Positions 18,711-24,000 are shown, counted from the stretch's first letter. The stretch: 24,000 nucleotides of DNA from Photobacterium profundum (GCF_003026285.1 NZ_PYOD01000012.1:16286-40285), one strand, 5' to 3'. Notes: generated by a model from the sequence alone, not told the origin. Program-made: numbers and translations.

Positions 18711-18832
18711 CCAGAACTTAGCTATATCACGCCGCTGCCTTCATCGGCGTAGCCCCTCTGTGAATAGAGAAAGCGGACATTATAAAGGACACTGAAAAAT
18801 ACAAGGCAGTAGCCCTAAGTGAGAGTCGTTAG
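18711..18832 (-). repeat. possible degenerate terminal attC
   Basis: On the minus strand a perfect RYYYAAC box (ATCTAAC) begins 7 nt after the stop codon of the last cassette gene. A GTTCTGG box lies about 120 nt further on. Arm pairing is poor: TCTCAC..CTACTGCC against GGCAGCGGCGTGATA, needing a 5-6 nt bulge. Confidence 0.3.
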
Positions 18833-18839
18833 ATAGAGT

Positions 18840-19658
18840 TCAACTCTTCTTGCTAGCAAACTCGTTAGCAAATCGATTAACCAACCAGCGACCATAACCG
18901 TCAATTAAAGCTGTAACCTCAGCTACTGACGAATTATCGTTATCTAAAATTGCAAGAGCTTGATTGATCCCATCACTCTGCACCTCCTCATAGGTAAGTA
19001 CTGTTCGTGCACACCTTTCTAGGCTTTGGTGCCAACTATTGTCTATCTCTGCAACCAGTGAGTAAGAGGTCCGAATTAGTTTCTTTGCGATAAACTTCCC
19101 TTTAACAGCAACATTATCCGTATTCAACTGGGCTTGAGTAGCCTTTAACATACAATCGAGATCACTATTAATAGCACGAGAAACTTGAATACTTGGCCTA
19201 TGTTTTCTGAAGAATACTGATAAATCGTTCCCCCAAACACAACAGCAACAGTGTTTGAGCCAAAATTGCCAATGATATTCTTCAACAGAGTCCATCACCT
19301 CATCAACATGTCCGAGATCAAAATCAACTTTGCTTATTATTGGGAAATCACGACAAATGATTGATGCAAGCTGTTCTAGTTGTAATTGTTGAGCGTAAAC
19401 TAAAGGAGAATGAAATATTACCGAAATATCTAAATCCGATTTGTATAGCACAGCCTCCCCACGAGCAATACTGCCGTAAAGATAAATACTATGAATTTGA
19501 TTTGAGAATGTTGAAACAAGTAAATTAAATTTTTCAACTATAAGTGGTTGAAATTCTCTTTGTATATTTTGGGGTGAGCAACGGTTAAGAACATAACCGT
19601 GTTCATCTAAGCCATTATCAAGATCCATATCACCCTGACATTCGATTTCCATGCTCAT
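18840..19658 (-). CDS. Pol-beta-superfamily nucleotidyltransferase domain protein (ANT/AadA-like architecture)
   Basis: NTase signature LYGSIARGEAVLYKSDLDISV (G-S-x10-D-x-D) plus a downstream acidic VDFD, with a helical C-terminal half. The ORF-track start (GTG at 19682) lies inside the attC. I prefer the ATG at 19658 (MSMEIE), preceded by AGGAAAG. Confidence 0.75.
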   Translation of the reverse strand: MSMEIECQGDMDLDNGLDEHGYVLNRCSPQNIQREFQPLIVEKFNLLVSTFSNQIHSIYLYGSIARGEAVLYKSDLDISVIFHSPLVYAQQLQLEQLASIICRDFPIISKVDFDLGHVDEVMDSVEEYHWQFWLKHCCCCVWGNDLSVFFRKHRPSIQVSRAINSDLDCMLKATQAQLNTDNVAVKGKFIAKKLIRTSYSLVAEIDNSWHQSLERCARTVLTYEEVQSDGINQALAILDNDNSSVAEVTALIDGYGRWLVNRFANEFASKKS

Positions 19659-19680
19659 CACTTTCCTTGAAATATAAAAC

Positions 19681-19770
19681 ACCGAACATAAGTTACACCA
19701 CGGCTAACTCACCAAGCACACTCAACTCCATACCAAAACTGCGAAGTAAAATGTGTCAACTTGATGTTTT
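19681..19770 (-). repeat. attC site, family B (B1)
   Basis: Minus strand reads TAA-AAAC-ATC-AAGTTGACAC ... GTGTAACTT-AT-GTTCGGT. The arms pair with two extra bases (C and G) on the 5' arm. It starts at the stop codon of the Maa-like gene. Identity to B2 is about 88% by my hand alignment. Confidence 0.7.
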
Positions 19771-20327
19771 TATAATTCTACTTTTTTTAGTATGCGTGCA
19801 GGGTTTCCACCGATAACTACGTTGTCAGGAAAACACTTCGTAACAACTGAGCCAGATGCAACTACAACGTTATTACCTAGTATTACTCCAGGATTGATTG
19901 TTGCATGCCCTCCTATCCAGCAGTTATCACCAATAACTATTGGTTTGGCAAATTCAGACCCACTATTCCTCTCAATAGGGTTAATTGGATGACAAGCAGT
20001 ATAAATGCCGACTTGAGGACCTATGAAACAATTATTTCCAATCATAACCTCAGCACAATCCAATATTACGCAACCAAAATTCACATAAAAATTATTACCT
20101 ACGGATATGTTTCGCCCATAATCACAATTAAAATTTGGTTCTATTTTTATGTTCCCTTCGATACTCCCAAGTAGCTCATGAAGAATTTTTTCCCTCTCAT
20201 CTTTCTGCATCCGAGTCGTTTGATTATATTTGAAAGTAAGATTTCGGGCTTTTAAGCGCATATCTGATAACACTTCATCACTAGGATCATAAATGTCGCC
20301 CGATAGCATCTTATCCAATTCACTCAT
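19770..20327 (-). CDS. maa: maltose/galactoside O-acetyltransferase (hexapeptide-repeat, Maa/LacA family)
   Basis: 185 aa, collinear with E. coli Maa (183 aa) as recalled. Matching blocks are IEPNFNCDYGRNISVGNNFYVNFGCVILD, HPINPIERNSG, IGDNCWIGGHATINPGV and VVIGGNPARILKK. Confidence 0.88.
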   Translation of the reverse strand: MSELDKMLSGDIYDPSDEVLSDMRLKARNLTFKYNQTTRMQKDEREKILHELLGSIEGNIKIEPNFNCDYGRNISVGNNFYVNFGCVILDCAEVMIGNNCFIGPQVGIYTACHPINPIERNSGSEFAKPIVIGDNCWIGGHATINPGVILGNNVVVASGSVVTKCFPDNVVIGGNPARILKKVEL

Positions 20328-20393
20328 TTTTCATTTCTCTTTCATTAGTTCGACTGAGCCACATAGAAACATAGACATAATGACTCCCATGAA

Positions 20394-22526: not shown

Positions 22527-22730
22527 CAGTTGTAGAATCACATTTAAAATGAAGTAACAAGCTTCACCGGGTCATTGCAATAGCCAATGATGATGTATGG
22601 TTAAGACTATTTGCGGGAAAACCTGATATGCAGGCGGGCAATAAAAAGCCTTCTAACGAATGAAGAGCGGCAGTCCCAAACCTAGCATTCTCTGACGCTG
22701 TTGTTGGCAACCGGAGGAGTCCATGTAGCC
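22527..22730 (+). ncRNA. candidate bridge/seek RNA in the IS 3' non-coding end
   Basis: Stem TTTG(C)GGGA (22610-22618) pairs with TCCCAAA (22674-22680), closing a loop. The loop contains TATGCA (22627-22632), a small hairpin AGGC-12 nt-GCCT, and AACGAATG (22655-22662). A further hairpin is TCATTG-CAATAGC-CAATGA (22572-22590). This is a hypothesis only. Confidence 0.3.
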
Positions 22731-22847
22731 TGCATAACACGTTTACTACAATGCAGGTTAAGTTGAATTTTACTGCCTTAATCTCTGAAACTAAAGGCAC
22801 ACCTAGAATGCCGAATGTAGAAAATCGTGTTGATGCATTTGTTATGC
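22731..22847 (-). repeat. attC site, family A (A2), R''-L''...L' portion
   Basis: Minus strand reads GCATAAC-AAA-TGCAT[C]AACACG[A]TTTTCTAC ... GTAGTAAACGTGTTATGCA. It is homologous to A1 along its length. Its R'' box starts 2 nt after the SDR stop codon (TAATGCATAAC). Confidence 0.75.
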
Positions 22848-22848
22848 A

Positions 22849-23601
22849 TTACAGCCCACCAGCTAAATCCAAGTAATTCCCTGTAGAAAATGATGACTTG
22901 TCTGATGCTAACCAATAAATTGCCTCTGCCACTTCAGCAGGTTCTCCACCTCTTTGAAGTGGAATTATGCTCTTTAACCTTTCAACTCGCTCAGGCTCTC
23001 CACCATCAGCATGCATTTCAGTATGAATTAATCCAGGACGTACACAATTAACTCGAATACCTTCCGCTGCAACTTCCAATGATAAGCCTTTAGTTAAAGT
23101 ATCAATTGCTCCTTTAGATGCAGCATAGTCAATATATTCATTTGGAGAGCCTGAACGTGAAGCGCCAGAAGATACATTAACAATTACGCCACCGAAGCCA
23201 CCATGCCGTGTAGACATTCGTTTTACTGCTTCTCGACAACATAAAAAGTAACTCGTGACATTATTTGTAAATATTGAATTAATCCGAGCAGCTGTCATAT
23301 CTTCTAAACGTGATTGTTTTTTCAAGATACCCGCGTTATTAACAAGGACAGATAGTGAACCTAATTCTCTATCGACGGTAGAAAACATTCGAATGACATC
23401 ATCTTCGCAAGAAACGTCAGCTTGAACAGTAATACACTTTTCACCTTCCGCTATTATTGCTTGAGCTAATTTATTCGCGGATTCTGAATTAGATTTATAG
23501 TTGATACATACAGCATACCCTTTTCTCGCAAAAAGTTGAGCTGTTGCGGCACCAATTCCTCGTCCGCCACCTGTAATCACTGCCACTTTTTGAACGCTCA
23601 T
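22849..23601 (-). CDS. short-chain dehydrogenase/reductase (SDR) family oxidoreductase
   Basis: TGGGRGIG cofactor motif at the N-terminus, an NNAG motif and a YAASK catalytic YxxxK. I place the start at ATG 23601 (MSVQKVAVITGGG), preceded by AAGGATAG. The 26 extra codons in the ORF track run into attC-C. Confidence 0.88.
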   Translation of the reverse strand: MSVQKVAVITGGGRGIGAATAQLFARKGYAVCINYKSNSESANKLAQAIIAEGEKCITVQADVSCEDDVIRMFSTVDRELGSLSVLVNNAGILKKQSRLEDMTAARINSIFTNNVTSYFLCCREAVKRMSTRHGGFGGVIVNVSSGASRSGSPNEYIDYAASKGAIDTLTKGLSLEVAAEGIRVNCVRPGLIHTEMHADGGEPERVERLKSIIPLQRGGEPAEVAEAIYWLASDKSSFSTGNYLDLAGGL

Positions 23602-23631
23602 ATCTATCCTTATATTCTGAGTAAAAGTAAT

Positions 23632-23754
23632 GCATAACGTCCGCTTAAGCTTTGAGCAACAAAACCGAACATTCTGCATTGCACCGTAAACACAGTGGCA
23701 TTTTGAACCAAAAATGCCACGCGTTGCAAATCAGCTTGAAGCGCTTGTTATAAC
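23632..23754 (-). repeat. attC site, family C (VCR-like)
   Basis: Minus strand reads GTTATAAC-AAG-CGCTT[C]AAGCT..GCAACGCGTGGCATTTT ... AGCTTAAGCG-GAC-GTTATGC. Both ends resemble the V. cholerae VCR as I remember it (TAACAAACGCCTCAAG..CAACGCGTGGCGTTT ... CCTTAGGCGGGCGTTA). The stop codon of the upstream ORF lies in R''. Confidence 0.8.
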
Positions 23755-24000
23755 GCATTTGCCACCGATGCTAACCATTGGGGAACATTACTTCTATACC
23801 AATTAATGTACTTGGTTGTTTCTGGGTTATTCCGGCTAACCAATATGTTGACCACCTCAATGATTATCCAACATTTAGCTATTATCAGATCCTTCATTAG
23901 CTCTGCTTCCGGCAACGATGAATTATACTGACTGTACTGCCGAATGATTAACTCATATTCAGAAACTGCCCCTAGTCCACTGACTAAAGGTGCCAAATCA
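23748..24000 (-). CDS. hypothetical cassette protein, 5' end outside the window
   Basis: The minus-strand frame is open to the window edge; the codon upstream of the ORF-track TTG is sense. Its stop is embedded in attC-C. No motif recognised. Confidence 0.5.
   Translation of the reverse strand, partial: DLAPLVSGLGAVSEYELIIRQYSQYNSSLPEAELMKDLIIAKCWIIIEVVNILVSRNNPETTKYINWYRSNVPQWLASVANAL

Follow-up and report, generated by a model that had tools for sequence, protein, structure and literature searches.

Gene content of the cassette array

The window, that is, the whole stretch of DNA analyzed here, comprises 24,000 nucleotides (nt) of a Photobacterium genome and corresponds to positions 16286–40285 of a 117.5-kb contig (C4) in an assembly (G000) of 6.1 Mb, 52 contigs and 41% GC; coordinates without a contig prefix are counted from its first letter. 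Comparison of its flanks with Photobacterium profundum SS9 (closed genome of the same clade, G049 in our panel of congeners) gave 92–93% identity, and the host is a Photobacterium of the P. profundum group. The subject of this study is an array of gene cassettes in the right-hand part of the window, together with its attC recombination sites and the fate of the integron integrase, IntI, whose gene is normally found beside such arrays. A preliminary description had taken it for the distal end of a chromosomal integron cassette array, terminating next to a cluster of tRNA-Val genes. Between 18840 and 24000 every real gene lies on the minus strand, and the six genes belong to unrelated families; both the orientation and the families named for five of them (SDR, GNAT, ASCH, Maa-type and nucleotidyltransferase) were borne out by searches of Pfam and NCBIfam.

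The open reading frame (ORF) at the right edge of the window (23748–24000), to which no function had been assigned, is a real gene: it represents the 83 C-terminal codons of an APH/choline-kinase-family phosphotransferase of 258 amino acids, which runs on to C4:40809 and is up to 72% identical to Vibrio proteins. It is followed by a gene for an SDR oxidoreductase (22849–23601; NF004777, 394.6 bits, above the cut-off of 383). The start of this gene is the ATG at 23601 and not the one at 23679, because family alignments open at residue 28–31 of the long ORF and an AAGGA motif lies 5 nt upstream of the internal ATG. Next come genes encoding a GNAT acetyltransferase (21766–22218; PF13508/PF00583), which has an orthologous cassette in a syntenic array of the congener G034, an ASCH-domain protein (21179–21643; PF04266, 8.8e-28) and a Maa-type (maltose O-acetyltransferase-like) hexapeptide acetyltransferase (19770–20327; Pfam Mac and Hexapep) scoring 248.7 bits on NF007499, under its cut-off of 314. 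The terminal gene (18840–19658) encodes a Pol-beta-type nucleotidyltransferase of 272 amino acids (PF18765/PF01909), with weak MntA/ANT matches confined to the N-terminal domain. Reading the sequence directly, a purine run resembling a ribosome-binding site was seen ahead of each start codon, in agreement with the earlier proposal that every cassette gene carries its own.

Vibrio homologues of the nucleotidyltransferase, 36–45% identical to it, sit outside arrays, and their interpretation as cassettes was rejected, with no attC matches or repeats around them. Among 67 genomes of the genus, the present assembly counted, 64 have a core paralogue that is 30% identical to it (here at C4:99077-99787); the protein in the window groups instead with a minority form, seen outside arrays in three Photobacterium and twelve Vibrio genomes. 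Searches of PDB sequences with the nucleotidyltransferase and the kinase gave weak matches only, and none of the six cassette proteins convincingly matched a known defence system, the similarity found being merely that of a generic nucleotidyltransferase fold. The six genes encode ordinary small-molecule-modifying enzymes.

attC sites

A covariance model, R1, was built from 24 attC sites adjoining the integrase gene intI in two congeners (G011 and G013; training regions of 20 kb next to intI), none of them from the assembly under study. BLAST showed that the repeat families of the window fill these same 20 kb, in the orientation of a cassette array, so that the array is of the integron type, as had been proposed. 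In the training sites, which align as canonical attC, the R boxes do not vary (TAAC ... GTTA), the spacer is unpaired, there is an L stem, and a C and an A bulge out of the 5' arm. On the bottom strand, the one that recombines, these bulges read as G and T, the usual extrahelical bases. In the R1 alignment 98.6% of the cells were paired, with compensatory changes in 7 pairs, and pairing fell to 30–42% when the partner was slid by one to three columns.

In the window, R1 matched the minus strand only, at five sites, and the best remaining score in the 24 kb was no better than E 0.35. With the bulges of the model and their co-oriented position after genes, these sites have the attributes by which attC is defined, namely R''(RYYYAAC)-L''...L'-R'(GTTRRRY) as an imperfect palindrome with extrahelical bases and a spacer that stays unpaired. 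They open at, or a few bases after, the stop codon of the preceding gene, and cassette boundaries fall exactly at G/TT in the orthologous cassette of G034. Site A1, of a third type (23632–23753), is intact (TATAAC ... GTTATGC; 33.8 bits, E 5e-7), and its centroid fold displays the R and L stems. Sites A3 (21658–21762; 73.7 bits, E 4e-18), which is degraded, and A5 (19674–19778; 85.1 bits, E 2e-21) are of a short type that, as isolated top-strand DNA, folds no better than shuffled sequences (z ca. 0). Two sites of a long type extend from R'' to the 3' spacer: A2 (22728–22847; R1 match 22725–22847, E 4.5e-5; fold z = -2.6), whose score of 26.9 bits was obtained with the R' positions absent, cut off by an insertion sequence (IS) remnant described below, and A4 (21057–21175; R1 match 21053–21175, 14.1 bits, E 0.18). 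The latter, the lowest scorer on R1, is the most stable DNA hairpin (z = -6.4; 0 of 200 shuffles as stable).

The claim that an attC follows every gene held for the five genes with R1 matches and failed for the nucleotidyltransferase: R1 with its filters off returned nothing 3' of this gene, and segment 18705–18845 folds like its shuffles (z = -0.4). The terminal gene is therefore without an attC. In three sites the central loop (23695–23720, 22796–22812 and 21129–21144) scores as an intrinsic-terminator-like hairpin on the cassette strand, which could hold back transcriptional read-through in the array.

Extent of the array and its attI-like head

The whole array measures ca. 7 kb (C4:34.9-41.9 kb) and contains eight cassettes, six of them in the window, with seven attC sites spanning 5.5 kb (C4:35959-41470). 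The part outside the window consists of a GNAT pseudogene (C4:41072-41353), its frame shifted by a small tandem duplication (tgtttgaa repeated), and a 92-amino-acid ORF; two further minus-strand R1 sites (C4:40822-40928 and C4:41366-41470) lie there, each after a gene. The array closes with an attI-like site ca. 1.6 kb outside the window, so the window does not hold the tail of a long array, but most of a short one.

The attI-like site consists of a 35-nt motif (C4:41887-41921) ending in AATAAAATG/TTA. Three congeners (G011, G013 and G009) have the same motif, GGATAnnCGAAnTnnTTnCGnnnAATAAAATG/TTA, in the interval from intI to the first cassette, and at the sequence level it places a G/TT crossover point at the array head. 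Allowing up to 5 mismatches it occurs three times in the assembly, against ca. 0.2 expected by our own estimate, each time at the head of, or within, an attC array and in cassette orientation. Array heads that are not orthologous have nothing in common except this 35-nt block, which reads as the putative attI site of the genus. A scan with the consensus of the cassette promoter Pc gave one weak minus-strand match, downstream of the attI-like site, and no enrichment over shuffles.

Elsewhere in the genome, R1 yielded matches in further arrays, for a total of 41, on contigs C4, C23 (two arrays), C19, C42, C11 and C34, plus a few single sites; the repeats are thus clustered in arrays and not scattered genome-wide. 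Several separate arrays lacking intI are headed by attI-like motifs (C4:41887-41921, C23:308677-308711, C23:558125-558159 and C42:32-43). Ahead of the copy at C23:308.7 kb stands a 21-bp inverted repeat that matches the upstream half of this copy perfectly. One motif copy lies inside the C23 548–561 kb array, which suggests that two arrays were fused there.

Insertion sequences and R-box decay

Two apparently empty stretches of the array, of 507 and 733 nt, are dead IS110-family elements, antisense to the cassettes. The 733-nt gap (20328–21060) was resolved solely through intact copies in congeners, and its reading as a non-coding RNA, a group II intron or a pseudogene cassette was rejected; Rfam returned nothing, and neither did Pfam and the IS110 hidden Markov model on its fragments. 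IS remnant 1 (20371–21056, plus strand) is internally deleted and matches multi-copy elements of ca. 1.5 kb in five congeners, an intact relative of which encodes a 393-amino-acid IS110 transposase (NF033542, 272.7 bits; BLASTP with the window fragment, 4e-15). Its insertion point separates the 3' spacer of A4 from the R' box; its end, GTTGG, mimics R', and the displaced R' box, GTTTCTA (20364–20370, minus strand), which is the start of the Maa cassette, directly follows its left end. Copies of the element in G003 and G036, whose end, CGTTGG, likewise mimics R', occupy the same place in attC sites, and one relative (G034:C101) lies outside attC.

IS remnant 2 (22256–22727, plus strand) survives as three pieces, 87–94% identical to a full copy at C23:321608-322900 (NF033542, 215+85 bits). 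It matches NF033542, has lost ca. 720 bp internally and is truncated at its left end within the first transposase codons. The R' box of A2 displaced by it, GTTAAAT (22247–22253, minus strand), is the start of the GNAT cassette; it was recognized by comparison with the G034 cassette, to which homology begins at 22254 and in which GTTAAAT directly follows an intact attC. In both cases the remnant borders on the 3' spacer of the attC and stands immediately 5' of the R' GTT, in the same antisense orientation to the cassettes; the two belong to different lineages.

The other damaged sites carry altered R boxes. In A3 the R'' core AAC has become AAA (TTTAAA), and immediately past L' similarity is lost, the 3' spacer and R' having been replaced; the orthologous GNAT cassette in the syntenic G034 array (92.6% identical) keeps an intact attC, TTTAAC ... 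GTTATGG. These changes in A3 have fused the GNAT and ASCH genes into one unit. In A5 the R'' core AAC has become TAT (TTAT where close relatives have TAAC) and the R' GTT is kept. Altogether, both R boxes are preserved in three of the seven sites, IS110-family remnants divide two others, and the remaining two have R-box mutations: the array is decaying.

Absence of an integrase gene

The preliminary description had placed intI to the right of the window. What lies there instead, upstream of the attI-like site, is a gene for a 639-amino-acid protein of unknown family and then a gene for a LysR regulator; no intI was found next to the array or anywhere else on the 117-kb contig. Searches of the assembly with TIGR02249, PF00589 and two congeneric IntI proteins (tblastn), covering all contigs, small ones included, apart from the 1.3-kb C35, disclosed no intI or long remnant of it, only XerC/XerD and phage-type integrases. 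Scores on TIGR02249 were at the XerC/XerD level; in 11 of 18 congeners they exceeded the cut-off, at 376–466 bits.

The former site of the gene was located by synteny. The intI flank of G011 and G034 is syntenic with C19:25834-38912, where homology ends ca. 40 nt inside the 3' end of intI. At C19:38912 a single-copy ISAs1-family element (NF033564, 422 bits) stands in place of the gene, and the last 11 residues of IntI, HHSGVISPLDR, survive with the stop codon at the junction, the altered locus covering C19:38873-40227; an attC array lies beyond, at C19:41.0-43.9 kb. Since the locus is assembled within C19 with the IS in its place, the absence of intI is no assembly gap, and the element and the 11-codon stump at the syntenic locus show that this genome's own integrase was deleted. 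The intI gene of the main integron, on C19, was thus removed by an ISAs1-associated deletion. The closed genome of SS9 also contains many attC arrays and no intI above the cut-off.

Several other candidates for intI were discarded. A 326-amino-acid tyrosine recombinase near a C23 array (C23:304380-305360) and C19:853-1170 scored below the level of IntI, tblastn on small targets at the array heads gave noise only, and a fragment inside an array (C23:549540-549953) derives from an internally deleted recombinase other than IntI. This fragment is the sole copy in the assembly of a tyrosine recombinase of ca. 308 amino acids that reaches ca. 90 bits against the IntI model in its N-terminal half and is present six times in SS9 (among the six, C2:1552960, C2:1839461 and C2:1340735), in several cases within or close to attC arrays. 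The protein is probably part of a mobile element, and we suspect it to be of the IS91-associated type. A repeat of ca. 270 nt with at least 25 copies across the assembly, 87–95% identical, one of them just upstream of the former intI locus (C19:33794-34064), looks like a miniature inverted-repeat transposable element (MITE).

Junctions of the array

On the distal side the array abuts three identical tRNA-Val(GAC) genes (18192–18511, plus strand; ARAGORN and Rfam), as previously described, which are part of the conserved chromosome. They are followed by a terminator-like hairpin (18532–18552), just beyond which synteny with the three closest relatives stops, homology ending at 18584–18604. In these relatives the DNA past the tRNA cluster corresponds to other contigs of the assembly. 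A ParA–tRNA-Val block is kept in nine congeners (3 to 10 tRNA copies), none with an attC within 18 kb; the adjacency to tRNA-Val is a lineage-specific junction and not a conserved location of the integron. Among congeners (L024–L033) the tandem tRNA-Val(GAC) genes number from 3 to 10, and some of these arrays end in a tRNA-Val(UAC).

Between the tRNA genes and the terminal cassette lies a conserved element of ca. 60 nt (18606–18672, minus strand), inside a doubtful 54-amino-acid ORF (18542–18706). Two other copies were found, at C23:548629-548697 and in G011 (L035:14829-14895), both in cassette-array regions. The three copies lie ca. 175–205 nt after a gene or an attC, and the hydrophobic ORF is not conserved beyond the element. 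Its AAC/GTT-like ends recall a short attC, but no hairpin forms on either strand (z = +0.5 to +0.8), for which reason it was not counted as one.

On the proximal side, the 270 nt upstream of the attI-like site and the core genes from C4:49720 onwards adjoin, in G034, attC arrays with 10 sites or more and, in G011, an array region with weak R1 matches; neither of these arrays has an intI. The attI side being syntenic with them, the array locus is older than the species. In the assembly under study an extra insert of 7.1 kb (C4:42131-49267) separates the attI-side boundary from the conserved core; it includes the genes for the 639-amino-acid protein and the LysR regulator, among others. The insert is flanked by similar segments of ca. 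85 nt (C4:49267-49351 and ca. 42036-42120), and the 639-amino-acid protein, which matches no family, is encoded by a gene 97% identical to one elsewhere in SS9. Seen against this background, the tRNA-Val junction appears to be a later rearrangement, one that probably removed whatever lay beyond the nucleotidyltransferase.

Origin and present state of the array

Seven clustered attC sites with no intI in the contig or the genome make the array a cluster of attC sites lacking an integron integrase (CALIN), a class that includes any group made up of two or more attC sites with no integrase in the neighbourhood; a complete integron has an adjacent intI. The reading we hold with considerable confidence is that of a short orphan array, built by an integrase, that has kept an attI-like head and has no integrase nearby or in the genome. 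The earlier view of the window as the tail of an active chromosomal integron was not borne out. From what is established of integron biology, each cassette would once have entered as a circle, through IntI-catalyzed recombination between a folded bottom-strand attC and attI, and the shared orientation and the spacing from stop codon to attC would be the footprints of such insertions. With intI lost through the ISAs1-associated deletion at the main integron, neither excision nor reshuffling would be expected, leaving the array frozen and its sites drifting; this present-day immobility is deduced from the lack of IntI and from the condition of the sites. A distal rearrangement, and not integration into a tRNA gene, would have given the array its tRNA-Val neighbourhood. 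Expression of the cassette genes may persist, driven by read-through or by internal promoters.

Three points weigh against this reading. The two long-type sites score low on R1 (26.9 and 14.1 bits) and were accepted partly on the stability of their folds and their similarity to sites in congener arrays. The attI function of the 35-nt motif is deduced solely from conservation of its sequence. Lastly, in a 52-contig assembly with arrays on C23 and C19 that reach contig ends, a second, unassembled intI is conceivable.

An extension of the same data, to which we would give a small but real chance, regards the integron of the P. profundum clade as a multi-platform system of dispersed arrays with their own attI-like sites, the window array being a conserved satellite and not debris. 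A single IntI would then serve the arrays in trans in species that keep the gene (G011 and G034), and the heads at C23:308.7 kb and C23:558.1 kb would be further platforms. Over the attI motif and its 5' neighbourhood (ca. 45 nt) this genome does not differ from the G011 ortholog, as against only 71% identity in the surrounding 228 nt, which could reflect selection on the site.

More difficult to sustain is the idea that a functional sedentary chromosomal integron has its distal part here, with an intI that escaped assembly or lies on another replicon and acts in trans on this and the other arrays. The contig ends just mentioned and the 1.3-kb contig C35 would leave room for such a gene, the attI-like site and three of the attC sites are undamaged, and G011 and G034 do keep intI elsewhere alongside a syntenic array that lacks it. 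However, the locus at which those two species carry intI is assembled inside C19 with an IS in the gene's place, no fragment of a second intI was detected in any contig searched, small ones included, and SS9, whose genome is closed, has many attC arrays despite lacking intI; we therefore regard this as improbable. Still less probable is a genomic island that a tyrosine integrase inserted into tRNA-Val and that carried the cassettes by chance. The array does abut the tRNA cluster, and each relative examined has different DNA past the tRNA terminator, but there is no integrase at either array end, the last 16–25 nt of tRNA-Val are not directly repeated in C4:34.8-117 kb, and at its opposite end the array shares synteny with the G034 and G011 arrays, which are not beside tRNA-Val; a rearrangement breakpoint fits better. 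That the repeats are elements of the repetitive extragenic palindromic or MITE kind, unrelated to integrons, among genes of an ordinary operon-like cluster is scarcely credible: the poor folding of the short-type sites and the few single copies outside arrays agree with it, but the same families form arrays in the expected orientation directly beside intI in congeners, covariation backs the canonical R''-L''/L'-R' architecture with its extrahelical bases, a cassette boundary coincides exactly with G/TT, and two sites hold an IS110-family element placed exactly 5' of the R' GTT.

Comparison with known systems

The array taken as an orphan may be compared with three kinds of described elements. 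Cury et al. 2016 (PMC4889954) catalogued 279 CALINs, about half of them in genomes without intI; they contain about 5 attC sites on average, and a recognizable intI pseudogene lies near only 15 of the 279. Like these, the window array comprises at least two co-oriented attC sites with no intI nearby, is small (seven sites), resides in a genome lacking intI, is associated with IS elements and carries cassettes of mostly uncharacterized accessory functions. Unlike them, its origin can be traced, through the attI-like head and the 11-codon intI stump beside ISAs1.

The sedentary chromosomal integrons of Vibrionaceae, such as the V. cholerae superintegron with its attC of the V. cholerae repeat (VCR) type, come from the same bacterial family and share with the window array long attC sites (105–125 nt) in homogeneous families, as well as GNAT, APH-family kinase, SDR and acetyltransferase cassettes. 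The window array differs from them in having no integrase, in being short, with three attC families interleaved and sites in decay, and in belonging to a genome with several separate arrays.

As for the IS110-family remnants, Tetu and Holmes are said to have delineated, in 2008, an IS1111-attC group within this family. The seekRNA work (PMC11187229) is cited for the same group. Both remnants share two of its traits, a DEDD transposase of the IS110 family and site- and orientation-specific insertion within attC, here at a fixed position 5' of the R' GTT and in one orientation, with an IS end, GTTGG, that mimics the displaced R' box. In contrast to that group, both copies are dead, with internal deletions and, in one, no left end, and they come from two lineages.

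CALINs, the cassette arrays of Vibrionaceae and IS110 elements that target attC have all been described already, and there is little here that is new in kind. For annotators, the case carries the caution that a co-oriented cassette array beside a tRNA does not imply a nearby integrase. Set beside its known counterparts, the window array stands out as an unusually legible instance of how a CALIN arises and decays, with an intI stump beside ISAs1, attI-like heads that have been kept, R boxes lost relative to an intact ortholog, and two IS110 lineages lodged in attC.

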